Under the pieces are notes generated by a model. It searched no databases, was not told the origin of the DNA, and saw nothing but the letters and a program-made list of their open reading frames with translations. Positions 28,086-56,681 of a DNA stretch of 64,000 bases are shown here, one piece after another. Position 1 is the stretch's first letter, and the number at the start of each line of letters is the position of its first letter. This DNA comes from Cyanidioschyzon merolae (taxonomy: Eukaryota): the NCBI GenBank assembly GCA_000091205.1, contig AP006494.2, one strand, 5' to 3'. The position numbers and the translations under genes are program-made.

Positions 28086-28472
28086 TTCTCCCCTACCTCG
28101 CCTCTGACTCTTCTTCTTCTTCATTTGCTCCTCTTCGCTCGATGCTCGACGAGAGGAGGAATCTCTCGTCTTATTCCTGCCGCCGGCGATGGAGGCCCTC
28201 CAGGATGCTTGAGTTTTAGATCCATGCCTTTCACTTGGGTTTTCCATTTCTTCAAACGAACGCACTTCGAATGCATCTGCAATGAACCGCGAAAAGCCTG
28301 TCACACCGGTGTCGGGTACGCGCGAGATTCACCGCATCGCTAACCGAATCCGGCAAGCGAGCGCATCTTCATTTCGAGCACCGCTGAGGCCAGGCCTTGT
28401 AGAGCTCGAGTTCTGGGGCTGCGAACGCGTCGCTGGTGGGAAAGTCGCCACCAAGCAGGGCTGGTTGTGGCT

Positions 28473-33433: not shown

Positions 33434-33777
33434 CCTTGAGGCGATCCACAGGTGGTTTGCGTGACCGAGGGCGGCCGGCCTGTTCACCGGGTGCGCCTCC
33501 TCGGTCTGCCGCGCTCTAGACGGGACAGCGCGCAGCGACTGGCCGTCTGGTGCTGCTTCCGGGACTCCTCAGCTGCCGATCCTGTGCCCCGGCGCGAGCA
33601 CTCGGCGACTTGACGTCTGGTGCTCGCTCAAGTCTCTCACGGTCACTACGACAACACGCACGCTCAAAAGCTGAGCACAGCGGAAAACAAAACCGATCCG
33701 CGATGCACGGGGGTGCTGCAGATCGATGCAGTCCGCGTCACGAGTTCTCGCAGTAGCACGAATACCACCGACAATAA

Positions 33778-33798: not shown

Positions 33799-34876
33799 GC
33801 AACGCAACGTACTCGGTCCACAAACAGCCGCAGTCAGCGACGAATGAGCGGCTCGCTCAGTAGCTCGCAACTGCAGCTCCAGCACGAGTACGGAACGGAT
33901 CGCAGACAGCCGCCACGAGGCCGCAGCGCTACGCACAGCGCGCGACGCACCGTCAAGCGCTATCCTGCGCTGACGGCCGCCGCAGCAACGCAGGCGGATC
34001 GAATGCGCACGGGTATATATATGAATATGGAACCTTAATCATCACTTGCGTTCAAACCATAGCTGGAAACACCGCGTCCCATCTCGAATCGCGAAGTTAA
34101 GCAGCATTGGGCTCTCTGAGTACTGTGATGAGGGATCGCACGGGAAACGGGAGTGACGCAAGTTCGCTTTTGCCACCACGTCGCGCTGACCTGTTCTAAA
34201 GCGCGCATCAGCAGACGCGAGCCGGGTAGTCTGGCGGGGAAGCACTGTGAGGCCGGCTTGCTCCGGAATACACTTGCAACCGGTGGTCCAGATCGACGAC
34301 GATAACGAGTGGGTAACTGCGGAGGCCTGGTTGCACAGAGCGATCTTGCAGCGCTACGAACCGCAACACCTGCCGATATTCTGGAGGAGGTGCGATCGCC
34401 CCCGCACGACGAACCCCGTAGCACCCAGAGGGAGTACGCACCCGCGCTACACCATGAATGCTAAAAAGGGCGGCAGGGCAGGGGCTGTCGCCCCGAACGC
34501 GTATTGCAGACAAACTAGCGCGTCACGTTCATGTGCGTCGCGTTCTAGTCCGTCGCACAGCAACAGGAGCACTGGAAAAGATCATAAGCCAGCATGCTAC
34601 CGTGCAGCGCACTGTACCGCCTTCGCTTTACGTCATACGGAACTAGACAGGAAAGTTGCCACCACGCCAGCCACGACTCCATCGATGCGAGCATCGCGCG
34701 TGCGCACGCGTGCCCGTCGCATCGACCCCTAAGCCGCCGTGTACCGAACACAACTGCCTCCGTTCGTCGCGAATGCGCAGCAACCTTCCCTCTGACACAG
34801 AAAAACACATCGTGTCCATCACAGACGCCGGTGACAAGGCCGCGTATAGCACCAACGAACTCGCCACGAATCCGCA

Positions 34877-37800
34877 TCAGCATTGTTTGCGAGTATCTCG
34901 CGCCACGGTCCATTCCGGGATCGAGGCATTCAACGCCGTCGCCGGGGATGCGCCCAGAGTCGCCGTGCTCGAGAGCGCCTCGCGTCGTGCAACTAAATTC
35001 AAGCGCTCTGCGAAAAGCTCCTTCCGGTAAATCTCTACCTGCTCCCGCTCCCGAAGGAACTCCTCTTCGAGCTGCTCAAGTACTTTCATCTTTTCTTCGA
35101 GTTTCCTCACCTGAGTCTCGATCGCCTGTTCAGTAGCCCGGTGCAGCTCTAGATGCTCAATGGCGGCGAGCTCCGCGGCCCGAGTGGCCGCAGCGCCAAG
35201 CGCCGTTGCCGCAACGGCCTGGATTGCATTCGCATCCGCAAGCGCTTCCGGTGGTGCGTCGCTTTTCATGATCGCTGCCAACGCGGCCCGGGCAGCAGCA
35301 GCAGCGACATCCGGCGAGACGCTGTTCGCGAGAAACGCAATATGCGCCATCAAGGGGTTTCCGGCGTCGGCGAAGAGCGGCGGCTCGTTTCGTTCGGTCT
35401 GCGCCGTCTCGCCAGCTACAGCGGGTACCGCTAAACGACTCAAATCATCCTCGAGAAACGGATCTTCAATGGGTAGACGAATGAATTTGGTGATGCACGC
35501 ATCGCGGGAACGAGTGCCAACGTGCTGAGCAACCGCATCCCAGTCATCACCGTATGCCTCGATTCCTTCGAGAAGCTGCAGCACCTCAACATCAGTCCAG
35601 TCGTCCGTGCTCGGAGCTGTGAGGGTTCCAGTGGCGCTAGCCGCCGACCCCAGCGATAGAACAGGTCTTAATTCGATGAAATCTTTTCCATTGAAGTCCT
35701 CGGGAAACTTGCCCTGATGGTAGCATTCGGGGCACAGGTCCATATCGGCCTTGAGCAAACAGTGGTACCGGCGTTGGGAGCAGTCTCTCCCGCACACGTC
35801 ACACTGGTACTCAATGGCTGCCGCTGCGGCATATAATTCACGGCGCGTTGCCATGGGCGCCAGATGCATGCGCGATTTCGGAATACGCGACCCGTCGTCA
35901 AACAAGAATATGCGAGGAAGTCCGCCCTCAAGACCAGCTGAGCTTGCTGCCAGGCTTCCCGAGCTGGTGGAGATAAGCGTCGCACCGGAACCCGAAAACC
36001 CGCCGCTAACAGTCTGTGGGCGCGTCTCGGGTGCCACTCCGTAGTTAATCAGGCCCCACTGCTCCAGAAAGGCGTGCACACGCATGACGGCACCCACATC
36101 GCCAGCGAGATGCCTCCGAACAGCTGTGCCTGTTAGGTAGCGGGTCGGATCCTGCCGCCACGTGTCAATCATAAAATTTCGGTAAAGCATGTATACTTCG
36201 GGCGTTTTCGAAGCAAATTTCCCAGAGAAAAACTCCGGCAACGCGCGTCGCTCAATGTCGTGAATCGCATCGATGCGAAACCATCGGCTGTGCGCGGGAA
36301 CACGAATCGGCGACTTTTCACCAATCGCCGTGGCAGCAGCCGCAGCCGGAAGCGTTTCCCGCTCCGCGAGGCCACCGAGTGCCTCGGCGACGCGACGCGG
36401 TGCAAGCGATTCTCGATCACGTGGCGCGTGTGCTGCCGGCCCCGGAAGCGCATCCTCTTCGGCTGCCGCAGCGTCATTCCGCTCTTTTCGTCGTTCGCGT
36501 AATGCTTCTCGCTGCTGTGCTAACCTCTTCTGTAGCTGCTCATCCCGCGAAGATGCAGTTACATTGCGCATGCGCAGTGTCGCGTCATCTGGAACTAGCG
36601 GACGCACCGCTGGGCGTGAAATGCGCGGTGCAGCGCCGGCCGCAGCGCTTGGCTGCTCCGCATCGACCGCAGCGCCAGTCTCCGTTGTGAACGTGATCGG
36701 GCCAGCAATATTCGGTGCCGGAACTTGCTCCGCGGGTGCATTGCTCGAGCTTCCCGCGTCCTGGCTCGCTATCGGCGGTGCCAAGCGAACCTTGATCTTC
36801 ATCGGCTCTGCGGATTCCTCTCGGACGGCGCGCACCGTCACCCGTTCTGGCGTGCCGTCTGGCTCCGGCTTCACGGGACTCGGTTCAGCGGATTTTCGTT
36901 TCGACGGCGTCGGTGCTGCGGTCTTCGACTCGGATCCTCGCAGGTGGCCATCGATGCGCGAGGCCGATGGCGGTTTCCACTCATCGACATTGAGCTTCTC
37001 CTCTTCGGGTATTACCTCATAGTCGTTTTCATTGCACCACTCATTGAACTTTTCGCAATCCTCGAGAAATCTTTTCTGCACATGCCATATTTTGCCCTCA
37101 ATCACTCCGGAGAGATTCTCCTCCTCTCCGTGCAGTTCGCCGTCGGGATCTTCTACCTCCTGAGCGGGAATCCATGAATCGTACGAATCGGGAAAGTACC
37201 ACCAGTGCGTCAGTACTTGATTCCCTTTCCTTTTCAGACTCACGCAGTAGTCCTCTGCCTCGGTCTCAGCCTCTGTCGTGCCGGGTGGATCGGGGTACAC
37301 AATATGTGTTGCCTCGCGAGGCGACGAAACGACGGACGCACCATGCTTCCTTGCAATGGCGCTGAGGCGGTCAATCTCCGCCGAACCCAATGCCGGTGCG
37401 AAAAACAACCGCGGCATCTGGAGCTGTTTCCGTTTTATCAGTTCCCGCTCAACTTCTTGGAGCATCTCTAAAAAAACTCCAGTCATATCGGGTTTGTGGA
37501 GATCAAAACGCCGTATTCCACGAGCAACCCTGAACCGAAAACAGCACTCGAGAATCGTACGCAATGAGCCGTGTGCCGAATAGTCGTGAAAGAGACGATT
37601 CGGCAGTTTCGTCATGAAACCCCGAATTTCTGGCGGCTCGACGGAGTTCCGTCCGAGAACCCGCTCTTGAAACTGAAGCAGGTTACCGGTCAGGAGGCTC
37701 AGCGCGCGCGGGGAGACGTCCACAGAGTCGCCGGGTCGAAACCCCAGTTGTTCCGGCGGTTCAGCGTTTAGCTGTGCCGAGATTGCCTCGAACTTCGCAA

Positions 37801-38044
37801 TTTGATGAGGATCCTCGTAGTCTTTCATGGATATATTACAGGACTTTACCCGCTTCCGCCGCGAATCCGCAGGTCTCTGACCTTCAGCTGACGGAAAAGC
37901 AGTGTCTTCCCGCGCATCCGCTGCAGCTCCTGTGCGCACTTCTTCAGACGGGGTAGACGTCGACTTGTTCCCGTCCGGGATGTGTGTTCCGTTGCCTTGC
38001 TGCTCTCGCGCGGTGCGGGAGCGTCTCTTCCGCGGGGGAACCAT
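34877..38044 (-). CDS. SWI/SNF complex subunit SWI3/SMARCC homolog
   Basis: SWIRM domain (IPAHSRWFRIDAIHDIERRALPEFF...YRNFMIDTWRQDPTRYLT...VHAFLEQWGLINY). ZZ zinc finger (YQCDVCGRDCSQRRYHCLLKADMDLCPECYHQGKFPEDF). SANT domain (DDWTDVEVLQLLEGIEAYGDDWDAVAQHVGTRSRDACITKFIRLPIED). C-terminal coiled coil / Leu zipper. The ORF-track start is GTG at 38053; ATG is at 38044. The conserved N-terminal region begins near MKDYEDP (about 37837), so the true start could be there. Confidence 0.85.
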   Translation of the reverse strand: MVPPRKRRSRTAREQQGNGTHIPDGNKSTSTPSEEVRTGAAADAREDTAFPSAEGQRPADSRRKRVKSCNISMKDYEDPHQIAKFEAISAQLNAEPPEQLGFRPGDSVDVSPRALSLLTGNLLQFQERVLGRNSVEPPEIRGFMTKLPNRLFHDYSAHGSLRTILECCFRFRVARGIRRFDLHKPDMTGVFLEMLQEVERELIKRKQLQMPRLFFAPALGSAEIDRLSAIARKHGASVVSSPREATHIVYPDPPGTTEAETEAEDYCVSLKRKGNQVLTHWWYFPDSYDSWIPAQEVEDPDGELHGEEENLSGVIEGKIWHVQKRFLEDCEKFNEWCNENDYEVIPEEEKLNVDEWKPPSASRIDGHLRGSESKTAAPTPSKRKSAEPSPVKPEPDGTPERVTVRAVREESAEPMKIKVRLAPPIASQDAGSSSNAPAEQVPAPNIAGPITFTTETGAAVDAEQPSAAAGAAPRISRPAVRPLVPDDATLRMRNVTASSRDEQLQKRLAQQREALRERRKERNDAAAAEEDALPGPAAHAPRDRESLAPRRVAEALGGLAERETLPAAAAATAIGEKSPIRVPAHSRWFRIDAIHDIERRALPEFFSGKFASKTPEVYMLYRNFMIDTWRQDPTRYLTGTAVRRHLAGDVGAVMRVHAFLEQWGLINYGVAPETRPQTVSGGFSGSGATLISTSSGSLAASSAGLEGGLPRIFLFDDGSRIPKSRMHLAPMATRRELYAAAAAIEYQCDVCGRDCSQRRYHCLLKADMDLCPECYHQGKFPEDFNGKDFIELRPVLSLGSAASATGTLTAPSTDDWTDVEVLQLLEGIEAYGDDWDAVAQHVGTRSRDACITKFIRLPIEDPFLEDDLSRLAVPAVAGETAQTERNEPPLFADAGNPLMAHIAFLANSVSPDVAAAAARAALAAIMKSDAPPEALADANAIQAVAATALGAAATRAAELAAIEHLELHRATEQAIETQVRKLEEKMKVLEQLEEEFLREREQVEIYRKELFAERLNLVARREALSSTATLGASPATALNASIPEWTVARDTRKQC

Positions 38045-38054
38045 GAAAAACACG

Positions 38055-39730
38055 TCACAGAGTTACTAGCTCCACCGAAAGACTTTCAATAGTCGATAGC
38101 TTGAATATCAGTATACAGTAGTGGCGAGCTGCGCGCCCTAGATCATACGTCTCCAACTGATGCGCAGATGCCTCCCTGTCTTTTTTGGACCGGCCATCTA
38201 CTACTGGTTTCAACTTGTTTCCGTAAAATTCCACCTGGAGAGGTTCCCCCACAAAGTTGGCTCTTGTCAACTCTGGAGGCCTTCTTTCCATCACCGCACA
38301 TCTCCTGATATTGATAGCGACATTAAAGTCTCGGTTCACAAACTCCATACGTTTCTTGCCATCATTGGTTGTACTATCCGATGTGATTAGTCCACGATCT
38401 TTCGCCATCCCTTCCGGTGACTGCTTCGTCAGCGCTCCGTACTTTGATATATCCACAGGGCTCCTCTGGCACTTTTCGATCTGCACGCTCTGGAGTGTGC
38501 AACCCAGCTCATGGTGTGTATACGATGTTCGGAACTCATCTACAGGTATCGTAACGAGACGCCTTGCGCACTCCTTGTACGCTCTTGTCGTCGGAGCTGG
38601 TGGACATCCTTTTTGGGTCATCCAGCGCCCTGTTCCGCACGCTACTACGAGCCTCTGACTTTCATCCTCTTTGAAGGCACTCAACTCATTGAAAAAATTC
38701 GCGAATGCACGCGGTTTCCCACAATACAAGTTCATACGCAAACGAGCCCACCGGGGCTTTGCATACTCATTCCACAGTGCATCCCAATGAGCAACGCGAA
38801 CTTCCATGAATTCCTGACAAGCTTGAAAGTCTGCTCCGCGGCTCGTCATCTGGTTCATAGCTTCAAGGTGCTCTTGCATTCCTGCATTTCACGTCTCATT
38901 TTTCCCTCGCATTCAGTATTCCCGACTCTCGGTGATATCCCGCTCGTGAGAGGTTTAACTGATGCATGTCTTTCTGGCATAAATTGCCTTCAATACCATC
39001 CTCCGCAAGCTTGGGTACTGCGATGGTTATGATATTCGTATTCCCAGGGTCCGCGCCATCGACAATGTCGTTCTCATGCACTTCCTGCGTCGTAGGATAC
39101 ACCTGCTTCTTTTCTTCATGCTTCGTCATGGGCGATATCGAAGACGGACCAGTACGATCTGTCTCCAAGCGCCGATTGTGTACATATATGGCTACTCCAT
39201 CGCGTTCGATCATCCCCGTGAGTACATTTCGCTTGTCCTTTTTGTGACGTTTGAAATCGAAGATATTCTTCCAAGTACGTCTCCTGCTTTGTACCGGTGA
39301 ACTCTGTCTTCCTTACATCGAACTCCGGACAGATCTCCTTCATGATGCCGTACAGGATTCTGGAGTCGATCGTCACAACGCGTGACTTGATGTTGCACAA
39401 CGGCAGGACGTTGAAGTGCTTTCCCAGAAGCGCAGCCTTCCGTTTCTCCGACTCTTCATTTTTTCCCGCGCCTACGTCCTTTCCAGTCTTGCGTTCGAGG
39501 TCTCGGTCCAAAAACACGAGATAGTGCAGGATTAGGGTATAGGATCCTTTACCATATTTTTCCATATTTGATATTTTTTCTTGTGAATTCGCCAACCCCA
39601 GTACCGCAAGGTGCTTTCGAATAGCCGCGCGGATCACAGAAGCTTCATTCCTTCTCCTGCGTGACATCTTCCCGTCGACGAGTTCGATCTCTTGTGCATT
39701 CTTACTCTCGTTCGCGACGCCATTGATCAT
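38055..39730 (-). pseudogene. TnpB/Fanzor-like (OMEGA-family) RuvC nuclease gene, broken over three reading frames (39730-39116, 39213-38896, 38879-38055)
   Basis: Fragment 2 carries a RuvC-I-like motif, DIVDGADPGNTNIITIAV (GIDPG-type). Fragment 3 carries the TnpB C-terminal module YKECARRLVTIPVDEFRTSYTHHELGC....KCQRS, which is the bridge plus a degenerate zinc finger, and RuvC-III FVNRDFNVAINIRRC (DRDxNAAxNI-type). Fragment 1 starts at a verified ATG (39730) with an in-frame stop just upstream. The frames shift at about 39120-39210 and about 38880-38896. No convincing intron signals were found, so the gene is either frameshifted (degenerate) or contains unconventional introns. Confidence 0.6.
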
Positions 39731-43664: not shown

Positions 43665-45194
43665 GGATTCGCTCCAACAACCATTACAGAGCAGACCGTG
43701 TGCCCTAGTGCACGCAAAGTTCCGTCACCCGAACCGCGTCTATGCCAGCGAAACGCATCTAAAGCCCTAGCCCTCAGCGACCTGACACGGCTTCCTTGCT
43801 GACTGCACCTCTACGAAGCGAGCAGTACTCAGTGGTGCGAAGCGCAGTCGACGAGTCAGAGAAGGGACAGCAATGCTGGAACTGGATCCTATTTGAAGCC
43901 ACGGTGAATACAACCGTTCTGTAAGCGTTGTTGCGCGCACGCGTTCTAGTCTTTCAACTCGGTTCTGTGACACCCCAGGGAGATGGAACCGAATGCTATT
44001 CCGCATTGTATGGCAGGAGATCGAAACCACGATGCACAATGCTGTATAGGTCGAAGACGAATTGCCTGTAGCATCTATTCGTTACTGAACAGTGCAAGGG
44101 GGACTACATTCCTTCTTCAGGTCAGTCATACAACAGCACTCAGATGGACGAGGAATACTGAAAGGGAGAAGTGCATGCGCTTCGTACCAAAACCGTTGTT
44201 CTCAAAGAGTGCTTATGGTCAGTGGTATAAAACAAACCATTGAACACCTGACGGAAAGCAAAATCAACGATAGCAGCCACCTCGGATGTCTCTGTCTCTC
44301 AACAGCTTGTTCGTGTAGTCCTGCAAACACTGGAATAACGTCGCAAAAAAAGTCCTAGTTCGATCAAGATCAACTTTCACTGAAATCGCGCCTACAGCAA
44401 CCCTGGAACGTTGTGATCGGTATGAAGCAGAGCAACGTCGGTTTATTTTAGTCGATTAGACTTTCCTCGGGTGAAATGGTTAGAGCGTATACGGGTATTC
44501 GCGAAGCAGATATCCCATTCTATATACGATTGACCTCGAAGAGAACGAGGATTTCATCTGTTCTAACTGTGGTGGATTCATTCGCCTGCCTCGATTTCGC
44601 TCGTAACGAAGGCTCATACAACAGTACCAAACACTCTGTCGAATCGTTGAAGACTTGCCCCTGTCATCTAGTGACGTCCTTCAATTAGGCAACATGGTAT
44701 ATGGCCTCTAGCCTTGGGTTCGGACTTTTGCCGTTTCTGTTGAGGCCGAGCTGCTTTCCATTCGTCCGTACGCTCCGAGGTTCAACTCCATCGAAAGAGC
44801 GTTTTCTATTGTGAAGCGTAATAATCGCTACATCCTGCGAATCGCTGAAGCGTTTCGCAAATTGTGACAACAAGGCATATGTCATCTTTCTTCCGCAAGT
44901 CCTTTTTCCTCCGGGAACCTCCGCACCTCTTGGCATAAACGAGAGCATTCATTTTCAAAAGTAAAAACTCAAGGAAAATGTATAGAAATGTAAGCCGGGG
45001 ATCCTGGCTGTCTGGGGTGCCTGACTGCTGGAAACAAAAGGAACCCATTTCCATGCTCACAGGAACAGGAGAGAACCACGAAAGCACGAGCAGGAGACCA
45101 GACCTCAAAACTTGCCCAAAAGGGGAGACTACGACGAGCCTGTAGTGAACGTCTGCCTTCCTGGTCATACAAAACATCCGTACAAACAAAGGTA

Positions 45195-46322
45195 GCCTGT
45201 TACGCGAGGAACGCTCGCTCCGCTTCCCGCGCCTTGACACATCTCGTCACGCAACGATTCGTACGAGCTGTGGACGAAGGGATGCCAGCTGCTCATGTTT
45301 CTCTTCAGCGTCTCGATCAAACCTGCACGCGACAGCACAAGTGATGCTCGTTGCAGCAGATGCGATGAGCCCTGGTCGTGGAACCTGAGGGTTGCACAGT
45401 CGCCTCCCAGCGTCTGCTGACGAGTGGACGCGTTGGCTAGTTGCTGCGTCGCATCGCTGCTTCAGGAATCCATACGTCTGCAACGCACATGCCAAAACGT
45501 ATCGAGCCTAGCCCAGCAATCGTGTGCAGATCGCTGCGGGGCGCTTCATGAGGCGCACCCTGCCGCCGATGTCCTCGTTGCACCCGGGCCTCACTGGCCC
45601 GAAACAATGCGGAAAGCTAAAAGGGACGCTACACTCTAGATCGTAAAGAAGCGTCGAAATAGCGCTCGCGGATGATCTCGTGGCAGGTGCACACGATACC
45701 GCGCTGCTGTCGCCTCTGACTTTGACTCGACGGAGGCTAGAAGCGAGCAGTCGCCAACTTGCTCGATAAGCTGGAGAAGCGAACGACCGAGGAGTCGCGT
45801 CGATTGTTGCTTGCCTACGCAAACGGACGTGCTGGTGCGTCCGCGTGTCGCACACCAGCGCCCTCGACGGGAGCGTCCAGCGAGTACACAGGGATCGCAG
45901 CTGGGCGATTTCCCTGCAAGCGTTCGCGACGATACGGAAGCATCACGAGCGGGTGTGCGCAGCGATGCTCGCCGAGAAGCCAATCGTGAAACAGAGCCAG
46001 CTGCACGAGATGGTGCACGGTACGCTGGGCGGGCGCCAGACTGCGAGGGAATCAAAGGCGGGCCTCCCTGTACAGTGCGAGTCGACGAGCAACAACGCAG
46101 ACAGGCGCTCGCTGCACCGAGACCCGAACGCCTCGATCAGCATATGGACGAGTCACGTGCTTCCTGCGCGTCCAGCGGCGTTGTGTGGAACCATTCTTTG
46201 AGGTGATCGTTCCGTACACAGTCTAGACATTGTGCTGAAACGCTCAAGTCTATCGATGAGGAGAAATCGATTGCCAACAGAGAGAGCACGGAATGACCCA
46301 TCGGGGGCAGGGCGCTGGTACG
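45195..46322. repeat. dispersed repeat family B, copy 1 (about 1.13 kb)
   Basis: About 99% identical to 55029..56157 in the same orientation (offset 9,834 bp). At least six ORF-track peptides are duplicated verbatim (for example 45247..45495 = 55082..55330). Starts at gcctgttacgcgaggaacgctcgc and ends at ggcgctggtacgg. No recognisable protein domain. Confidence 0.85.
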
Positions 46323-46694
46323 GTACGCGTCGACCATGCATCAAACCTGGACCAACATGGACATATACATACCTGGAACAATATCCTACCCTATCCGTGA
46401 ACGATCATCGTGTCCCAGTATTCGACATTCATGCATATACCGTAAAACTGCACGCTTGGATAGTGCCTTTGGCCTTCAATCCATGCAAGCATCGGAACGG
46501 CATCCAGCGAGAGCTCAAGATGGCGCCTCACGTGCAAAGCACGAAGGACTGCAATGCGGACAGCAGGCTGGGCGCTGTCCACCGCGCGTTCCTGCCAGCT
46601 GCGCAAGCGCCGCCATCGGCTCGAGCTGCAATCTCCACACACGTGCGCGTACCGTAGCGCTGGAAAATGTTCGGTCAGTGTTCTGGGCGCCGCT

Positions 46695-48341
46695 ATGTCG
46701 AGTGTCCTGGAAGACTTTGGTAACGTTCTTGATTCAAGTCGTTGTGGGTATTGTGGTGACAATGAGCAATGTACAGATAATACTGAAGGAGAGCGCTGCG
46801 GGAGTCTCGCAGCGCATACCGAGCGTCGAAGGCGGCGTCTCCGGGGAGCGCTGTGGGCGCATCGCCTTCGCCTCGAGGACTACCGCGTGCTCATGGACCA
46901 TGGTTGGCGCCGTTCTGGTTGCTTCTTGTATTATCCAGATAACGATCATGGGTGCTGTCCACAGTACGCTGTTCGAGTGCCGCTATGGGATTTTGAACTG
47001 ACTCGCTCTCAACGACGCGTGCTGCGACGCTGGCAAAACTTTGTCTCGGTGCAAGGCGACCTCGCAGAACGTTGTTTCATTTTCTACGGTTTGACCATTA
47101 GCTCCAATTTGGAGAGCGCGAAACCATTACCTAGCGCAAAGCTGAACAAGACCGAACTGCAGCCTGTGGCCCCAAAACCCGTTGATGACCGTCTGGAGCA
47201 GTTGCGAATACACCTGGAACCGTCTCTGCAGCGAGTCCCGGTGAAAAGACGGCAAGTGAGTGGAGGCGCCCATTTCACCACCGCCATCGCCTGGAAACTC
47301 GCTTACGAGCATCGAACTTTTGTGACGCAAGAAGCAGAGCAACTCGCAGCCCGTCTCTGGGATCGAGGTGCAGCTCAGTTGGGGATCACCAGGATGGAGG
47401 TCTCCAACGGACACGTGAACCTTTACGATAGTCTGACGCAGAGCGCTACAGAGACGGAATGCCGAAGCTCCAGGAATCCATGCGCTCGTGCGGAACTGCC
47501 CGATAAACCCATTCGCTCGAAACCGGTACTCCGGATGGAGTTGCTCCCAGCAGCGTATCGCGAGGATGCTTTTCATTTATATTGCAAATATCAACGGCGG
47601 GTCCACGGCGACACAGACGAAGAGCTCAAGCCAGATCGATATAGTCGTTTTCTCGTCGAGCATCCTTTTCACGACGACGGAAAAGGTCGGCGACTCGGTG
47701 TCTCCCATCTCCATTTTTACATCGATGATGTGCTTGTCATTGTGAGCGTTCTCGACATGCTACCGGGTTATTTATCGAGCAAGTACTGTTTCTACGATCC
47801 TGACCTTCCGTCTCGTTTATCGCCTGGCATATTTGCCGCGTTATGTGAAATCCAACTGGCATGGACACACCTGGGCGCCAGTCATTATTACCTTGGGTAC
47901 TACATCCATAGCTGTAGCAAAATGCGGTACAAGGTCTCCTTTCGCAAGGCGCAACTTCTTTGTGGTCACTGCTTTCGATGGCAACCGTTCGCGAATGTTG
48001 CTCGTGACGCTCTCGATCGGGACGAGCATTGCGTTGGCTTCTGCAATAGATCCAGAGCAGCTACGGCTACGGATGATGCGAACGGTGCTCCTGGTGTTGG
48101 CGTTCGTGGTGTGGAGGAGCGTCATTCACGAGCCGCCGACGCCCGACTCGAGAAAGTCTTGGTTTGGCTGCTGGACGCTTCGGGTTGCTCCGCGGCATTG
48201 GCACCACAGCCGTTGTCGAGCGTGGAAACCGTCGAGCTCAGGGAGCGAATCCGTGCGGCTCTGCAGCGCTTGGCCGCAATGGTTCCTCCCAGCTTCTTGG
48301 AACGAATCATATACCTTCCGCCAAGGCAGGTGTTTTCCTAG
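46695..48341 (+). CDS. ATE1: arginyl-tRNA-protein transferase (ATE1)
   Basis: N-terminal domain CGYCGDNEQC...HGWRRSGCFLYYPDNDHGCCPQYAVRV. C-terminal domain HYYLGYYIHSCSKMRYKVSFRKAQLLCG. The in-frame ATG at 46695 is chosen. The ORF begins at ATG 46554, but its first 47 aa are not ATE1-like. Confidence 0.85.
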   Translation: MSSVLEDFGNVLDSSRCGYCGDNEQCTDNTEGERCGSLAAHTERRRRRLRGALWAHRLRLEDYRVLMDHGWRRSGCFLYYPDNDHGCCPQYAVRVPLWDFELTRSQRRVLRRWQNFVSVQGDLAERCFIFYGLTISSNLESAKPLPSAKLNKTELQPVAPKPVDDRLEQLRIHLEPSLQRVPVKRRQVSGGAHFTTAIAWKLAYEHRTFVTQEAEQLAARLWDRGAAQLGITRMEVSNGHVNLYDSLTQSATETECRSSRNPCARAELPDKPIRSKPVLRMELLPAAYREDAFHLYCKYQRRVHGDTDEELKPDRYSRFLVEHPFHDDGKGRRLGVSHLHFYIDDVLVIVSVLDMLPGYLSSKYCFYDPDLPSRLSPGIFAALCEIQLAWTHLGASHYYLGYYIHSCSKMRYKVSFRKAQLLCGHCFRWQPFANVARDALDRDEHCVGFCNRSRAATATDDANGAPGVGVRGVEERHSRAADARLEKVLVWLLDASGCSAALAPQPLSSVETVELRERIRAALQRLAAMVPPSFLERIIYLPPRQVFS

Positions 48342-50560
48342 AGCAGCTCGCTTGCCAATTTGCTGAGCTCGCTACGTTCGCCTTTTTCTAATGTTACGTG
48401 TGCATAAAGTGATTGTCCCTTCATTCGTTCGATCAAATAAGAGAGACCATTGCTATGTCCATCAACATAGGGGTTGTCGATCTGATGAAGATCGCCGCAG
48501 AGAACCACTTTGGTCCCTTCGCCAGCTCGGGTTATGATCGTTTTGACCTCATGTGGGGTTAGGTTTTGGCTCTCGTCCACGATCAGAAACGTACGACTGA
48601 GCGATCGTCCTCGGATGTACGCCAGGGCCGCGATTTTGATCCGCTCGCTTGCCATCATATCATCGATCTCGCGGCTGCGCGCGGTGGGCACAACTTTGCC
48701 ATTATCTTTGGTGTGCAAATGCGCAGCTTTGATGACGCCGAGATTGTCGTAGAGTGGCTGCATGTAGGGCGCGAGTTTTTCGTCCAAGTCGCCTGGGAGG
48801 AAGCCGACATCGCGGTTGCCCAATGGGACAATAGGTCGCGAGACGAATATCTGCTCGTAAAAGCCGCGACTCGTCATTTCCAGAGCGGCAGCCAGACAGA
48901 GCAGGGTTTTCCCGGTGCCAGCGACGCCGCATATGGTGACCAGCGGTATCGATGGGTCTAATAGGACGCGCAGCGCGAAGGTTTGCTCCGCGTTACGCGG
49001 CATGATTCCGTATGCTGAGACTCGATCAACTCGCTGAAATGTGAAATCACCGCAATCCTTGGACATCGCGAATGTAGCAAGCACCGAGCTCGACGCATTT
49101 CGAAGGATGAAATGCTCGTTCGGAAGGGGCTTCATTGCGAACGAATCTTCAGCAGTAGCAGCAGGAGCAGCAGCACTTGCTGCTTGCGGTGCGCAAGTTC
49201 CGTCGGGTGCGACATCATTCTCTTTTGACGCTGCTGGGTTCGCGAGGCTCCGCTTGTGCATGATTTGTTGTCCGAGCCAATGTATAGCGCTCCGCGCGGT
49301 CTCTGATGGAACAAATCCGACATCGTTGGTGGATTTCTCAGCACAACATGCACTGGCGTGTGATCGCATGAGCGAAGTGAACTCCGCTGCGGTCAGTCCT
49401 TCTGCTCGCCCAACTAGCGCTTCGATCAGTTCGTTCGGTACGTTTTCGATAAGTCGCTGGCCTAAATATAGCTTGCTAATGCTCTCAACCCGATCCTGTT
49501 CGTAGTCTTCGGCATGGAGGCCCAACGCACGAGCCTTCATGCGCAGGTTCACATCCTTGGTGACTAGGACCACACGCTCGTAAAGCAACCGCTGGCCCGC
49601 ATGGTTTGTTTGCAACACCGATCCATACACGGAATCGGTGAGCTCGCCTTCCTCCGGAGGCGGCGTCCACGTTGGTGGCTCAGCCGACTCTGCAACAGCA
49701 AGCGCGTGGACAGAAGCCAGTATCCGCATGTCGGGGCTGTCGTAGAAAAAAAGGCGCTCCATGCGAGCATCTCTGCAATGGAGCGAAATACGCACCGATC
49801 CGTGCTCGGCATTCTCCTTGTTCAGCGGGACGCCCTGAACTAACCAGTCTCGAGAAGACGGTGAAGCGGCCGTAAGATTCCAGTCTCCAGTCCCGGAACC
49901 ATCTCGCGCGGAAAATTTGCTCCCCCGCAGGTGCGCGCTTGCGCAGTCTTTCGATTCTGCGGCAGGCTGGTCGTTCCGCGCAGCACGGCTGTGAAGTATA
50001 GTCATTTCGTCGAGCATCCGCAGAAACTCTCGAGCGTGAAAATGAATCTCCTCGTTCCCACGCTTAAACTTATCCAGCTCTTCTAGAACGGTGATTGGCA
50101 AACAAATATCGTGATGACCAAACCGCCACAGGCATGAAGAGTCGTGCAGAATAACGTTCGTATCCAGGACGTAGAGCCGGCGCCCGAGGAGAATCGGCGG
50201 TGTTCGATGCATCCCTTGCTCCCCGTTTGCGCTAGCGGAGGCGACATCTTCTGCTGCTTCTGGTCCGCGTTTTCGTGCCGAACGTTCACGGTACTGCTGT
50301 ACAATGCCACCGAACCCGACCCCAGAGCCAACCGGAACCACGCCGTGCAGCGCAACTGCACGACCGATGTAGCGCATATCGCGGGGACCACCGCCTCGAC
50401 CAGACGAGGCGTACACGTGTCCAGGACGCGTGAATGTGCGACAGGAGTGCCGGGTTCGGCTGCGGAGGCCCCGACCTGGAAGCGGGCTTGTACTTCGGAA
50501 CGGCACCGCTTGACCTCCGTGTACGCTCGTGCAGCTGTACGCAATCAGCGGTCGAGCCAT
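48338..50560 (-). CDS. PIN-domain + PhoH-like ATPase fusion (PhoH2/YlaK-type) with an N-terminal extension of about 115 aa
   Basis: ATG verified at 50560. PIN domain: YVLDTNVILHDSSCL...ICLPITVLEELDKFK. PhoH/P-loop: VTICGVAGTGKTLL, IVDESQNLTPHEVKTIITRAGEGTKVVLCGDLHQIDNPYVD, YAHVTLEKGERSELSKLAS. The stop codon overlaps the ATE1 stop on the opposite strand (CTAG at 48338-48341). Confidence 0.85.
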   Translation of the reverse strand: MARPLIAYSCTSVHGGQAVPFRSTSPLPGRGLRSRTRHSCRTFTRPGHVYASSGRGGGPRDMRYIGRAVALHGVVPVGSGVGFGGIVQQYRERSARKRGPEAAEDVASASANGEQGMHRTPPILLGRRLYVLDTNVILHDSSCLWRFGHHDICLPITVLEELDKFKRGNEEIHFHAREFLRMLDEMTILHSRAARNDQPAAESKDCASAHLRGSKFSARDGSGTGDWNLTAASPSSRDWLVQGVPLNKENAEHGSVRISLHCRDARMERLFFYDSPDMRILASVHALAVAESAEPPTWTPPPEEGELTDSVYGSVLQTNHAGQRLLYERVVLVTKDVNLRMKARALGLHAEDYEQDRVESISKLYLGQRLIENVPNELIEALVGRAEGLTAAEFTSLMRSHASACCAEKSTNDVGFVPSETARSAIHWLGQQIMHKRSLANPAASKENDVAPDGTCAPQAASAAAPAATAEDSFAMKPLPNEHFILRNASSSVLATFAMSKDCGDFTFQRVDRVSAYGIMPRNAEQTFALRVLLDPSIPLVTICGVAGTGKTLLCLAAALEMTSRGFYEQIFVSRPIVPLGNRDVGFLPGDLDEKLAPYMQPLYDNLGVIKAAHLHTKDNGKVVPTARSREIDDMMASERIKIAALAYIRGRSLSRTFLIVDESQNLTPHEVKTIITRAGEGTKVVLCGDLHQIDNPYVDGHSNGLSYLIERMKGQSLYAHVTLEKGERSELSKLASELL

Positions 50561-50715
50561 CGTTGTGCCTTCGCACGAGCACGCTTTTCAATTCCGCAGT
50601 TACTGAGGCTCACTGCCAAAAGACAAAGCTTCTAAAGTGCTTCTATACTGCAAGAAGAAGTCTGCGTGCCCGCAGCGGGCAGGCGTGCAACGTGCGTACC
50701 CTACTTCAAGAGGAG

Positions 50716-50730
50716 CACACACACACACAC
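50716..50730. repeat. (CA)n microsatellite
   Basis: Direct read: cacacacacacacac. Confidence 0.8.
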
Positions 50731-51399
50731 AAGCCTCGGCAACGAATCGCTGAAGCGCGCGCATGGACCACTGTCGGGTGACGAGCTTCGCATCTTCGCG
50801 CCTGGATTATGAACCTGTACATCAAGGACATTCGCATGACGTTGCGCGCTCGCCAGCCACAACACGCTGCAAGTCCGTTGCGTGCGCTCCCGGCGTTGTG
50901 CATAGCGTGATGTACGAGGGCGCTTCACCACGAGGAACGCGCGGTGAGTGAAATACGATGCCCCTAGGCAGTGCTATGTATTGGTGGTGTTTTGCGGATC
51001 TTGGGTGTCCGGTGCGGCACGATGGCTGTTTCTGGCGACGTCGATAACCAGTGCGCACCCTGTGATTGACGACTCTGCGCAAAGAAACCTCCATCGAATA
51101 CGTCATGCATCTTGTTCCTGAAGACGCGGCCCTTTCGAGTACCAAAGGCTAGGGCGGACCCCGTATCTAGCATGGTGTGTTCGGAGTCTGGCCAGCGCAC
51201 CTCATTGATTCATATGCTCGCTGAATTCCGACGTGGTGATCATTCTGGACCTCATAGAGCTCGCAGACCTTTTGAACAGAATCATATTTTAGGCCATTGA
51301 AGGCGGCTGCGAGCGTCAATACCGTGGTAACTTGCAACGTTCACCGACGCGCACCATGACGCATACCGGGGAGCGGCGCACGTTGTCGCCGCGCGCAGT

Positions 51400-52833
51400 A
51401 TGGAAAGCTGTGACCGTTTGTACCAGATATATACAGAATCGAATGACCCGTTCACTGCGCCTGCGCCTCAATCCGCATCATTGACATCACGCGCTCTTGC
51501 AGTAACGATGATGAGACTTGAGGCTCGGTCCATGAAACCCTGCACGCTAGACGGAGCGAGTGATCCAGACCTACAACGAGCCAATGAAGCTTTCGTGTGG
51601 TCGACCGCACCCGGTGGTGAACGAGCAACTGGCGCTGTCCAGCGCAGAGAGTCGTACACTAGGCAGCGCCACTGGCCGCGTCCGTGGCGTCCCGCATTGA
51701 GCGCGGACAACTGGCGCAAGTGTCGTTTCAGTGCCGCAAGGGGAAGCCCGTTTCTATCTGGGAGTGCACGTGCACTCGAGACTTCGTTGCACAGCCGCTA
51801 CCCTGCGTTGAACAGTGCTGTTCCAGGTGGCCACGTGTCTATGCAGTATGGGCAGGCTGCGACTGCACGAGACGCGAACGAGGCCCGTACCGGCGTCTAC
51901 CAACCTAGCATAGAAGCAAAGCTTAAAACACTAACTGAAAAGGTTAAACTTGCGTGTGTGCAGTGCAGAGCGCCGCTGGAACTAGATAGCGCTAATCGTT
52001 TGCGCTGCCCGAACGGTCACGGCGAGGCGAGCTGGATTCAGGTCAGCGAAAAGAGCAGAGGTGGCGGCTTTTGGGACCTGACACCGCAAAGGTTCCGCTA
52101 CAACGTAGATGAACGTCCTCGAGGACCTTCTGTGGAACTTCGTCGAGACCTCTTCCAGAGCCCTTTCGTCGCCTTTTTGTACGAGCGTGGGTGGCGAGAC
52201 CAGTTCCGATCTTCGGGATTTCCCGGCCCCGATGCTGAGTTTCGCATCGTTCAGAGCTTTTTCAAGGGCGCAAACTGCGTTATGGATCTAAGCTGTGGTT
52301 CCGGACTTTTTACTCGTCGCCTTGCGGCTAGCGGGGATTTTGACCACGTCATCGCTGTGGACTACTCAGAGGCAATGCTGCGCGAGTTGGTCGAACGAGC
52401 GGAGCGCGAGCCGCTACCTGAACGCATCGGTGGCGGCTTTGTGTCTGATCGTATCACTGGCATCATTCGCGCTGACGTGGAGCGTTTACCTTTCGCCAAT
52501 GAGTCTATCGACTGTATTCACGCTGGTGCTGCGTTGCACTGCTGGCCCTGCGTCCAGGACGGACTCCATGAAGTGTATCGGATTTTGCGGCCCAGCAAGG
52601 GGCCAGGCTCCGGTCGTTTTCTGGCAACGACATTCCTGTGGTCGACGTCGCCGTTTGGACTCGCGGTCCGTGAAGGTCGTCTGCTTAGCCCGAGCGCCGG
52701 GTATCGCTTCTTCGATGCAAAAGAACTTGAGTGGCTTGTGAAGAGCGCTGGTTTCGAGCGGGTAGAAATTGAGGTGATTCGTCAATGTGCGATCATTCGT
52801 GCCTGGAAAGAACCGAGGGCACGGCACGGATAG
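51400..52833 (+). CDS. class I SAM-dependent methyltransferase with an N-terminal zinc ribbon, RlmA (23S rRNA m1G)-like; N-terminal extension of about 190 aa
   Basis: ATG verified at 51400. Zinc ribbon CVQCRAPLELDSANRLRCPNGH. SAM motif I VMDLSCGSGLFTRRL. Post I/II AVDYSEAML...RADVERLPFANESIDCIHAGAALHCWP. The architecture (Zn ribbon followed by Methyltransf_11) matches RlmA/RrmA. Confidence 0.7.
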   Translation: MESCDRLYQIYTESNDPFTAPAPQSASLTSRALAVTMMRLEARSMKPCTLDGASDPDLQRANEAFVWSTAPGGERATGAVQRRESYTRQRHWPRPWRPALSADNWRKCRFSAARGSPFLSGSARALETSLHSRYPALNSAVPGGHVSMQYGQAATARDANEARTGVYQPSIEAKLKTLTEKVKLACVQCRAPLELDSANRLRCPNGHGEASWIQVSEKSRGGGFWDLTPQRFRYNVDERPRGPSVELRRDLFQSPFVAFLYERGWRDQFRSSGFPGPDAEFRIVQSFFKGANCVMDLSCGSGLFTRRLAASGDFDHVIAVDYSEAMLRELVERAEREPLPERIGGGFVSDRITGIIRADVERLPFANESIDCIHAGAALHCWPCVQDGLHEVYRILRPSKGPGSGRFLATTFLWSTSPFGLAVREGRLLSPSAGYRFFDAKELEWLVKSAGFERVEIEVIRQCAIIRAWKEPRARHG

Positions 52834-55028: not shown

Positions 55029-56157
55029 AGCCTGTTACGCGAGGAACGCTCGCTCCGCTTCCCGTGCCCTGACACATCTCGTCACGCAACGATTCGTACG
55101 AGCTGTGGACGCAGGGATGCCAGCTGTTCATGTTTCTCTTCAGCGTCTCGATCAAACCTGCACGCGACAGCACAAGTGATGCTCGTTGCAGCAGATGCGA
55201 TGAGCCCTGGTCGTGGAACCTGAGGGTTGCACAGTCGCCTCCCAGCGTCTGCTGACGAGTGGACGCGTTGGCTAGTTGCTGCGTCGCATCGCTGCTTCAG
55301 GAATCCATACGTCTGCAACGCACATGCCAAAACGTATCGAGCCTAGCCCAGCAATCGTGTGCAGATCGCTGCGGGGCGCTTCATGAGGCGCACCCTGCCG
55401 CCGATGTCCTCGTTGCACCCGGGCCTCACTGGCCCGAAACAATGCGGAAAGCTAAAAGGGACGCTACACTCTAGATCGTAAAGAAGCGTCGAAATAGCGC
55501 TCGCGGATGATCTCGTGGCAGGTGCACACGATACCGCGCTGCTGTCGCCTCTGACTTTGACTCGACGGAGGCTAGAAGCGAGCAGTCGCCAACTTGCTCG
55601 ATAAGCTGGAGAAGCGATTGACCGAGGAGTCGCGTCGATTGGTGCTTGCCTACGCAAACGGACGTGCTGGTGCGTCCGCGTGTCGCACACCAGCGCCCTC
55701 GACGGGAGCGTCCAGCGAGTACACAGGGATCGCAGCTGGGCGATTTCCCTGCACGCGTTCGCGACGATACGGAAGCATCACGAGCGGGTGTGCGCAGCGA
55801 TGCTCGCCGAGAAGCCAATCGTGAAACAGAGCCAGCTGCACGAGATGGTGCACGGTACGCTGGGCGGGCGCCAGACTGCGAGGGAATCAAAGGCGGGCCT
55901 CCCTGTACAGTGCGAGTCGACGAGCAACAACGCAGGCAGGCGCTCGCTGCACCGAGACCCGAACGCCTCGATCAGCATATGGACGAGTCACGTGCTTCCT
56001 GCGCGTCCAGCGGCGATGTGTGGAACCATTCTTTGAGGTGATCGTTCCGTACACAGTCTAGACATTGTGCTGAAACGCTCAAGTCTATCGATGAGGAGAA
56101 ATCGATTGCCAACAGAGAGAGCACGGAATGACCCATCGGGAGCAGGGCGCTGGTACG
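55029..56157. repeat. dispersed repeat family B, copy 2
   Basis: See copy 1. About 10 mismatches over about 1.13 kb. Confidence 0.85.
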
Positions 56158-56681
56158 GGCCGAGTCAGCAATCCACCAAGTCTAAAGCATCTTATATACA
56201 CTCCAGGACCCATTCTTTTAGGGCATTGCCGAACGATAATTATCTTGCTCGATTATGGAACCACACCGACTATACTCGAGGCACCCGCGGTGCATCATTG
56301 TGCTCTACCACTAGGTGCCGCGTTGATTGCACATGCTGCATCGCGATGCTCGTGATTCCATGAACGAGGCCCCGCTCCAAAGCGACCTTCGCAGCGTCGC
56401 CTCAGAGAGCCGCTACCGCGCGCTAAAGCATGCCGACACCTATCGTTCAACGCGGGCTCCCTGACCACCACCATGTCAACGTTCCGTCCAAGAACACTCG
56501 TACGCTGAACAAGTCTCGGGCATTGGCGCACGATCTATGTCCTTCTTGTACTGGTTTGTACAGATAGCGGACGTTGATTGCTTGCGCACTGACGCGTTTG
56601 CGTCACCGAGATTCCACTATCATCGTTTTTAGTCTACGATGCGGTGTTCTCTGGCTTCACGGGTGTTGCAGGTCTAGGGCT

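Follow-up and report, generated by a model that had tools for sequence, protein, structure and literature searches.

The stretch of Cyanidioschyzon merolae DNA analyzed here (64,000 nucleotides of contig AP006494.2, assembly GCA_000091205.1; referred to below as "the window") contains, at positions 48338..50560 on the minus strand, a gene for a protein in which a PIN nuclease domain is fused to a PhoH ATPase domain. This open reading frame (ORF) is a genuine, transcribed nuclear gene, and its product is a member of the bacterial PIN-PhoH2 (YlaK/COG1875) family. Taking all of the evidence together, we consider it reasonably probable that the protein is an archaeplastid PIN-PhoH2 of bacterial origin that functions in the plastid, and that the overlap between its stop codon and that of the convergent ATE1 gene is a by-product of genome compaction. 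PhoH2 proteins have been described as bacterial and archaeal enzymes (PMC7390352) or as enzymes that bacteria and phages possess (PMC5499597), and no paper on a eukaryotic PhoH2, or on this C. merolae protein, was found in the literature. The gene represents not a new kind of system but an undescribed eukaryotic, probably plastid, branch of a known family.

The PIN-PhoH2 ORF is intact and intron-free, starts with ATG and encodes 740 amino acids (aa). Its translation is 100% identical to the C. merolae 10D protein BAM80687.1 / XP_005536723.1, and the public annotation of BAM80687.1 reads "similar to phosphate starvation-inducible ATPase PhoH". Domain membership was judged against the Pfam gathering scores. 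The PIN_4 nuclease domain occupies aa 128-354 (49499..50179, minus strand), with PF13638 matching aa 130-354 at 94.1 bits (cut-off 21.9). It is followed by a linker and then by the PhoH P-loop ATPase domain, which has a RecA-like fold and spans aa 519-727 (48380..49006, minus strand; PF02562, 165.8 bits, cut-off 27). A first-pass annotation, made from the sequence alone, had proposed an intact PIN-PhoH fusion in a nuclear context, and both parts of this proposal are borne out, the former by the two domain scores and the uninterrupted ORF, the latter by the identity with the 10D protein, by synteny, by introns in orthologs and by a GC content at third codon positions (GC3) of 0.58, which is similar to that of the genes beside it. 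The synteny of PhoH2 with ATE1 and a methyltransferase gene is kept in Cyanidiococcus, and in Cyanidium ATE1 is again the convergent neighbor of PhoH2. The Rhodosorus ortholog has two introns; in Galdieria partita the gene span exceeds the coding sequence by 66 nt, and this gene probably carries one or more introns as well. The Rhodosorus and Galdieria genes are located on contigs of 0.2-3.5 Mb amid ordinary eukaryotic genes. Contamination or an assembly artifact was considered and ruled out by the synteny, the ortholog introns, the native GC3 and the RNA contigs described next.

Many public assemblies hold contigs encoding exactly this protein or a near-identical variant of it, and 19 of the 23 contigs with the variant belong to the 2-5 kb size class. 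Fifteen contigs were mapped to the window. Eleven of them (L088-L091 and L097-L103) are about 4.0-4.7 kb long and 99.5-99.75% identical to the window; ten begin at 50,678-50,726 and one at 50,891, and their other ends lie between about 46,366 and 46,754. Illumina adapters are present at both ends of L089 and L091, two of the four Logan contigs, at both sequenced ends of L103 and at one end of L102, and several JGI contigs have a short unrelated sequence at one end. From the adapters, the sizes and the shared ends, we infer that these contigs are RNA-derived assemblies and that their ends are transcript ends. They consist of the PhoH2 leader, the PhoH2 coding sequence, the reverse complement of the ATE1 coding sequence and the ATE1 leader, and the span 46653..50726, with genes on both strands, is unbroken in single RNA-derived contigs from at least 11 assemblies. 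Both genes are transcribed. As L088 and L090 start at 50726, the 5' untranslated region (UTR) of PhoH2 comprises 166 nt (50561..50726, minus strand). This leader contains no AUG, and in-frame stops are located 9 and 13 codons upstream of the first methionine (M1). M1 is the first AUG of the PhoH2 mRNA, which begins at least 166 nt upstream of it. Given the AUG-free leader and the in-frame stops, translation by scanning would therefore start from M1, and the N-terminal extension discussed below would be made. Gene callers have repeatedly picked a start at Met62, giving models of 679 and 671 aa.

Conservation of the catalytic motifs was evaluated in an alignment of 60 homologs. The PIN acidic residues D133 (in VLDTN), E160, E161 and D163 (VLEELD), D336 (TKDVN) and D352 (EDYEQD) are invariant, and D356 of the last motif is conserved in at least 90% of the sequences. 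In the Walker A motif, GVAGTGKT (aa 545-552; 48905..48928, minus strand), residues G545, G548, G550, K551 and T552 are invariant and A547 is conserved in at least 90%. In the Walker B region, IVDESQN (aa 660-666; 48563..48583, minus strand), I660, D662, E663, Q665 and N666 are invariant. Other PhoH motifs, YIRGRS (R650-G651-R652) and GDxxQxD (G689-D690, Q693 and D695), are also kept in the 60 homologs. Since the PIN acidic tetrad and the Walker residues are all conserved, there is no sign of the inactive enzyme that the first-pass annotation had allowed for, and the protein is predicted to be catalytically competent. In the AlphaFold2 model (mean predicted local distance difference test score, pLDDT, of 72; 301 residues at 90 or above), both domains are confidently predicted, while residues 1-122 and three internal segments are predicted to be disordered. 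The PhoH domain matches the Corynebacterium glutamicum PhoH2 ATPase domain (PDB 3b85) both by sequence (E 6e-26) and by fold (template modeling score, TM, 0.82); after 3b85, the folds most similar to it are the RecA-like cores found in Upf1, Dda and RecD.

Eukaryotic relatives were sought in two ways. Word-based searches with the C. merolae and Rhodosorus proteins as queries found orthologs in Cyanidiococcus (72% identity), Cyanidium (57%), Galdieria and Rhodosorus marinus. A profile of eight red-algal sequences, searched against 1.84 billion cluster representatives, found four more proteins above the bacterial baseline of about 480-500 bits: those of the glaucophytes Cyanoptyche gloeocystis (P0254, 660 bits) and Cyanophora paradoxa (P0255, 642 bits), that of a Planctomycetaceae cluster from a metagenome-assembled genome (P0256, MBH56675.1, 597 bits), and that of Porphyridium purpureum (P0257, 573 bits). 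The Planctomycetaceae cluster scored about 100 bits above the remaining bacteria. The other long proteins found by the profile have intein-like insertions or basic N-terminal tails, and none is evidently eukaryotic. Eukaryotic homologs are thus distributed among Cyanidiophyceae, Rhodosorus, Porphyridium, Cyanophora and Cyanoptyche, that is, three red-algal classes and two glaucophytes; protein and profile searches found the family in no other eukaryote, green plants included. As a separate observation, three prokaryote-like PIN-PhoH homologs (P0272, P0335 and P0378) carry large intein-like insertions, placed exactly in Walker B (VDEC...HNCQNLT) in two of them and after Walker A in the third.

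The relationship to bacteria was addressed with a neighbor-joining tree of 98 sequences and 441 columns, computed from simple distances, in which the bacteria had been picked by similarity and no cyanobacterial PIN-PhoH was included. In bootstrap replicates, the red algae were monophyletic in 72%, the glaucophytes in 100%, and both together in 79-83%. The sister group of red algae plus glaucophytes consisted of at least 80% Planctomycetota in 42 of 60 replicates. This tree replaced an earlier one without glaucophytes, in which the red algae fell outside all sampled bacteria with 58% support. Provisionally, the nearest bacteria appear to be Planctomycetota, with no cyanobacterial affinity in a tree without cyanobacteria, and the protein belongs to the planctomycete/FCB-type YlaK branch. 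We propose that the gene would have been acquired once from a bacterium by an early archaeplastid, before red algae and glaucophytes split, and that the donor would have been planctomycete-like rather than cyanobacterial. Red algae and glaucophytes would then have kept the gene, and its absence from the green lineage would reflect either loss or non-detection. The reading of the origin is provisional because the method is crude, the bacteria were selected by similarity and the tree has no cyanobacterial PIN-PhoH.

Alternatively, the gene might have come by endosymbiotic gene transfer from the cyanobacterial endosymbiont and not from a planctomycete-like donor, which we regard as possible but doubtful. 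The presence in both glaucophytes and red algae places the acquisition close in time to the primary endosymbiosis, PIN-PhoH genes do exist in cyanobacteria, such as SYNW1946 (PMC5490813), and the bacterial sample held no cyanobacterial sequence for comparison. However, cyanobacteria were absent from the best matches of the protein, genome and profile searches: none was present in the best 120 matches of two protein searches, or in the best 80 of 590 species-representative genome matches, and among the top matches of the profile search, most of them unnamed, no cyanobacterium was recognized. A plasmid collection, a genome scan and three protein searches yielded no cyanobacterial PIN-PhoH sequence. 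Moreover, the location of SYNW1946 in a genomic island sets it apart from the core genes of cyanobacteria (PMC5490813). The main text of a paper on horizontal gene transfer in Cyanidiales (PMC6629376) mentions neither PhoH, PIN domains nor Planctomycetes.

The gene convergent with PhoH2 is ATE1, encoding arginyl-tRNA-protein transferase (coding sequence 46695..48341, plus strand). The listed ATE1 ORF, 46554..48341 (plus strand), contains the ATE_N and ATE_C domains (Pfam), and its likely true start is M48, for which an ortholog alignment agrees with RNA contig ends located 16-42 nt upstream of 46695. Some ATE1 transcripts (contigs from 46653-46658) carry an out-of-frame upstream AUG at 46667, which opens a short upstream ORF (46667-46723, plus strand) running across the ATE1 start codon at 46695. 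At the other end of the gene, the tetranucleotide CTAG at 48338..48341 holds both stop codons, as had been noticed from the sequence: TAG at 48339-48341 is the ATE1 stop, and the TAG of PhoH2 appears on the plus strand as CTA at 48338-48340. The PhoH2 C-terminus (LASELL, directly before the stop) is kept even in bacteria, and that of ATE1 (YLPPRxxxx, directly before the stop) is kept in three genera. Both C-termini are conserved up to the stops, so each stop is genuine. Cyanidiococcus yangmingshanensis (CTAG) and a third lineage, L104 (CTAA), share this 4-nt overlap; in L104 the PhoH2 stop has changed from TAG to TAA with the geometry of the overlap unchanged. In Cyanidium caldarium, a 110-nt spacer is present at the junction, and in Galdieria and Rhodosorus other genes adjoin PhoH2. 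Within the window, PhoH2/ATE1 is the tightest of five convergent ORF pairs. The mean intergenic length is 1.9 kb in C. merolae, and of the three genomes that of Cyanidium caldarium is the most compact, with a mean spacer of 320 bp (PMC9812998), despite its 110-nt spacer here. The overlap is real, old, and unusual given the 1.9-kb mean spacer.

With the two stops overlapping tail to tail, the mRNAs must be antisense to each other at their 3' ends unless the UTRs have zero length, and the first-pass annotation had accordingly claimed that the 3' UTRs overlap. This expectation agrees with the RNA data, in which at least 11 RNA-derived assemblies bridge both genes and termination free of overlap was not seen. 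As unbroken RNA coverage across the CTAG lets an assembler merge convergent mRNAs, the 3' ends overlap, and an antisense overlap of at least the k-mer length is supported. None of the poly(A) signals AATAAA, ATTAAA, TGTAA, ATAAA or TAAA is present within 400 nt downstream of the PhoH2 stop, and a single ATAAA is found downstream of the ATE1 stop. Synonymous sites show no excess conservation toward the two 3' ends (0.56 and 0.16 versus means of 0.38 and 0.41, in 25-codon windows), with third-position identity saturated at 0.38-0.42.

We suggest that the overlap would be a by-product of compaction that became fixed since selection on both C-termini hinders the genes from drifting apart; purifying selection on two C-termini that share the junction suffices for its retention. 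It is unlikely that the overlap is instead a selected device, in which convergent transcription or 3' antisense pairing couples the expression of PhoH2 and ATE1. In its favor, the arrangement persists in three Cyanidioschyzon/Cyanidiococcus lineages whose proteins have diverged by 18-28% in sequence, despite the expansion of intergenic regions to a mean of 1.9 kb in C. merolae, and the two transcripts do overlap. However, the spacer in Cyanidium and the different neighbors in Galdieria and Rhodosorus, the lack of excess synonymous conservation near the 3' ends, and the fact that C-terminal selection is enough to freeze the junction all argue against such a device.

Two features of the locus surround this gene pair. 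A class I methyltransferase gene (51400-52833, plus strand) is divergent from PhoH2, and the first 290 or so residues of its product have no domain match. It adjoins PhoH2 in Cyanidiococcus and L104 as well, but not in Cyanidium. In addition, an 1130-bp direct repeat with 99.0% identity between its copies (45194-46323 and 55029-56158) flanks the ATE1-PhoH2-methyltransferase block on both sides. Three DNA-type contigs (L087, L095 and L096) break off within this repeat, and the compact Cyanidiococcus locus has just a 326-nt gap at the position of the left copy.

An alignment of the C. merolae protein with its orthologs and with bacterial proteins of about 445 aa revealed what the algal lineage has added to the bacterial scaffold. 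The bacterial homologs begin 7-10 residues before the VLDTN strand, whereas the C. merolae protein has 127 residues there. The N-terminal extension proposed earlier is thus present, although its length relative to the bacterial homologs is about 120 aa and not about 115. Residues 1-60 (50381..50560, minus strand) resemble a transit peptide in composition, with no Asp or Glu, 10 Arg, 13 Ser/Thr, 9 Gly and 6 Pro; they are predicted to be disordered and vary among species. A conserved block, PRDMRYIGRAVALHGVVPVGSGVGFGGIVQQYRER (residues 59-93, including Met62; 50282..50386, minus strand), is common to Cyanidioschyzon, Cyanidiococcus and Cyanidium and is also found in L104, and residues 94-127 are variable again. 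Hydropathy peaks at 1.58 over residues 69-87, a value that is borderline for a membrane helix. In the AlphaFold2 model the block has low pLDDT, is unstructured and does not touch the PIN domain. A search of 5.8 billion proteins for other carriers of the block, with residues 1-127 as the sole query, gave no match at E values up to 10. A methionine aligned with Met62 is also present in Rhodosorus (CMTLGGYK). The Met62 block may be the site of a second start codon or of cleavage, or it may serve as a membrane tether or an inhibitory peptide.

Plastid import in rhodophytes and glaucophytes relies on a Phe close to the start of the transit peptide (PMC2222254, PMC4510345). Such a Phe occurs in 85% of rhodophyte and about 100% of known glaucophyte transit peptides, Tyr can partially substitute for it, and the transit peptides of Cyanophora have a median length of 63 aa (PMC4510345, PMC9407449, PMC2222254). 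Nine of the 11 PhoH2 ortholog N-termini have a Phe at positions 2-10: Cyanophora (MAGFILAVPA, F4), Cyanoptyche (MSMTLLGFAAPVF, F8), Porphyridium (MAFCCLHAWG, F3), Rhodosorus (MGFVFSLSGW, F3 and F5), P0149 (MGFVGG, F3), P0135 (MAFLTAFSCS, F3 and F7), Cyanidiococcus (MRAHRFCARS, F6), Galdieria yellowstonensis (MFAKKGALSF, F2 and F10) and Galdieria partita (MQGKEKALSF, F10). The other two are that of Cyanidium (MALRSTAAVS) and that of C. merolae itself (MARPLIAYSC), in which Tyr8 is aligned with Phe7 of P0135. Because nine of the 11 N-termini carry the Phe, plastid import is, in our view, probably the fate of the protein, with mitochondrial or dual import ranking second and a non-organellar location third. 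The first 60 or so residues, translated from the first AUG, would act as a rhodophyte-type plastid transit peptide. The idea that the extension points to an organellar role, raised in the first-pass annotation, is thereby well supported by comparison, as judged from the acid-free, Arg-rich N-terminus and the Phe motif of the orthologs.

Mitochondrial or dual import, for example with a long M1 form going to the plastid and a short Met62 form going elsewhere, appears improbable. The Arg-rich extension without acidic residues would fit it, and a short form would fit the conservation of Met62 in Cyanidiales, the aligned Met in Rhodosorus and the Met62 models of the gene callers. However, with 15 Gly and Pro among the first 60 residues, an amphipathic presequence helix is disfavored, and none is predicted; the Phe motif is plastid-specific; and all RNA contigs start upstream of M1, with no upstream AUG. 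Still less likely is a non-organellar enzyme, that is, a cytosolic or nuclear surveillance or stress RNase resembling SMG6/UPF1, with the extension serving as a disordered regulatory tail. PIN_4 is indeed the family of SMG6 and Swt1 (PMC5499597), the PhoH fold resembles the RecA domain of Upf1, and the extension is partly conserved rather than free-evolving. Nevertheless, every archaeplastid ortholog has an extension that is missing in bacteria, in most cases with the Phe motif, and the family was found only in lineages with Phe-dependent plastid import.

Besides the extension, four segments distinguish the C. merolae protein from the bacterial ones. Insertion 1 in the PIN domain (aa 189-238; 49847..49996, minus strand) is predicted to be disordered (pLDDT below 50 at aa 206-225) and is missing from the bacterial sequences and from Rhodosorus. 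Insertion 2 in the same domain (aa 293-325; 49586..49684, minus strand) is specific to Cyanidiophyceae and has low pLDDT at aa 306-310. An 85-residue linker insertion between PIN and PhoH (aa 392-476; 49133..49387, minus strand) occurs in Cyanidioschyzon, Cyanidiococcus and Cyanidium only and is mostly disordered by prediction (pLDDT below 50 at aa 423-469). Lastly, sequence comparison identified an eight-residue insertion, HTKDNGKV (aa 616-623; 48692..48715, minus strand), in a loop of the PhoH domain. It is present in all nine red-algal sequences, giving a loop of 35 residues versus a median of 27 in 87 others, only two of which have a loop of comparable length.

In the actinobacterial enzymes, the only ones for which these activities are known, PhoH2 unwinds 5'-tailed duplex RNA with ATP in the 5'-3' direction and combines this with sequence-specific RNA cleavage by its PIN domain (PMC7390352). 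As all catalytic residues are conserved, the algal enzyme is expected to act like mycobacterial PhoH2. By analogy, the PhoH domain would use ATP to load on and unwind RNA in the 5' to 3' direction, the PIN domain would cleave the single strand with a divalent metal, and the mature enzyme would serve RNA turnover or processing in the plastid. A role in toxin-antitoxin function or antiviral defense like that of bacterial PIN-PhoH, in place of housekeeping organelle RNA metabolism, is most improbable: it would parallel mycobacterial PhoH2, described as a toxin with the partner PhoAT (PMC7390352), and the Synechococcus PIN-PhoH that restrains cyanophage Syn9 (PMC5490813), with the conserved N-terminal block as a possible fused inhibitor, but there is no small ORF upstream and no AUG in the leader, PADLOC gave only weak helicase-motif matches to Nhi and AbiO, AlphaFold2 does not place the block against the PIN domain, and retention across deeply diverged red algae and glaucophytes fits a core function.

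Among characterized or sequenced relatives, the Planctomycetota YlaK proteins (Pirellula staleyi P0083 and MBH56675.1 P0256) share with the C. merolae protein the order PIN_4, linker domain and PhoH, 57-59% identity over aligned columns, all catalytic motifs and the C-terminal LASELL. They differ in that the C. merolae protein adds about 120 N-terminal residues, three disordered insertions and the eight-residue loop, and in that the algal gene is nuclear and monocistronic, with introns in Rhodosorus and probably in Galdieria. Mycobacterial PhoH2 (Rv1095 / MSMEG PhoH2) has the same PIN plus PhoH architecture, but actinobacterial PhoH2 is only about 31-34% identical to the Rhodosorus ortholog, the C. 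merolae protein stays below the cut-off of the NCBIfam model NF053827, and a phoAT-like upstream gene is missing in C. merolae; the search for such a partner found none, the mRNA being monocistronic with a 166-nt leader devoid of AUG. The C. glutamicum structure 3b85 matches the PhoH domain in sequence and fold, but the solved chain comprises the ATPase domain only, and sequence and fold searches of the PDB found no full-length PIN-PhoH2 structure. SYNW1946 of Synechococcus WH8102 is the same PIN-PhoH fusion, and the photosynthetic lineage that carries it is akin to the ancestor of the plastid (PMC5490813). It differs in being part of a two-gene operon in a genomic island, with a phage-restraining phenotype (PMC5490813). 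SMG6/Swt1 with UPF1 offer a PIN_4 subfamily nuclease (PMC5499597) and an Upf1-like helicase core, but there the nuclease and helicase are separate cytosolic or nuclear proteins without PhoH, and any kinship with the algal protein is apparent at the domain superfamily level only.

Several observations weigh against a plastid PIN-PhoH2 of planctomycete-like origin that works as its actinobacterial counterparts do. First, the initial 10 residues contain no Phe in C. merolae (which has Tyr8 and Phe21) or in Cyanidium, and a study of the N-terminome and proteome of the Cyanophora cyanelle does not name the protein in its supplementary tables. Second, a stretch of about 35 residues within the presequence is conserved, unlike a free-evolving transit peptide; together, this block (residues 59-93) and the conserved Met62 suggest that the extension is more than a transit peptide. 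Third, the protein scores 237.6 bits with the NCBIfam PhoH2 equivalog model NF053827, versus a cut-off of 680, and the actinobacterial biochemistry, substrate preference and regulation may differ in the alga. Finally, a neighbor-joining tree built on simple distances, with bacteria chosen by similarity and no cyanobacteria, weakens the case against an origin from the endosymbiont.

Elsewhere in the window, a solitary 5S rRNA gene (34044-34164, plus strand), matching Rfam RF00001 over its full length with 94 bits, is flanked by protein genes and adjoins a stretch of 67% GC. A bacterial-type UvrC is encoded at 28467-30677 (plus strand), with GIY-YIG, UVR, UvrC RNase H and HhH domains and an N-terminal extension of about 90 residues. 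Its translation after the listed GTG start reads MTFCRHYVYF, with an early Phe, and UvrC may be another bacterial-type enzyme that is targeted to an organelle. The ORF for 6-phosphogluconate dehydrogenase (31508-33487, minus strand) has about 120 extra N-terminal residues and is located where the GC content of the window is highest (0.67 at 32-34 kb). A SWIRM/SWI3-like ORF (34877-38053, minus strand) is separated by one stop codon from a 274-aa ORF without a Pfam match (38055-38879, minus strand), and the two may belong to a single gene that a stop, a frameshift or an intron interrupts.

What is new here beyond the first-pass annotation is: the distribution of the family in red algae and glaucophytes; its affinity, which is planctomycete-like and not evidently cyanobacterial; the Phe-type transit peptides; the N-terminal block; and the RNA evidence for the overlap with ATE1. 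A more far-reaching and quite improbable combination would be that PIN-PhoH2, taken up by the first archaeplastids from a planctomycete-like (PVC-group) bacterium and not from the cyanobacterial endosymbiont, was ancestral in plastid RNA metabolism, kept in glaucophytes and red algae with Phe-dependent import and lost in the green lineage, that the N-terminal module of Cyanidiales is a membrane tether or a fused inhibitor replacing PhoAT, and that antisense pairing with ATE1 is obligatory. If true, this pairing would link the Arg/N-degron pathway of the cytosol with an RNase of the plastid. The ATE1 overlap provides a clean natural test of convergent transcription, as Cyanidium has the same gene pair with a spacer. 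The gene also adds a case to the debate on non-cyanobacterial input to the plastid proteome, and a candidate RNA helicase/RNase to the poorly known RNA decay of non-green plastids. With its homologous recombination, C. merolae gives PhoH2 research a genetically tractable eukaryote.

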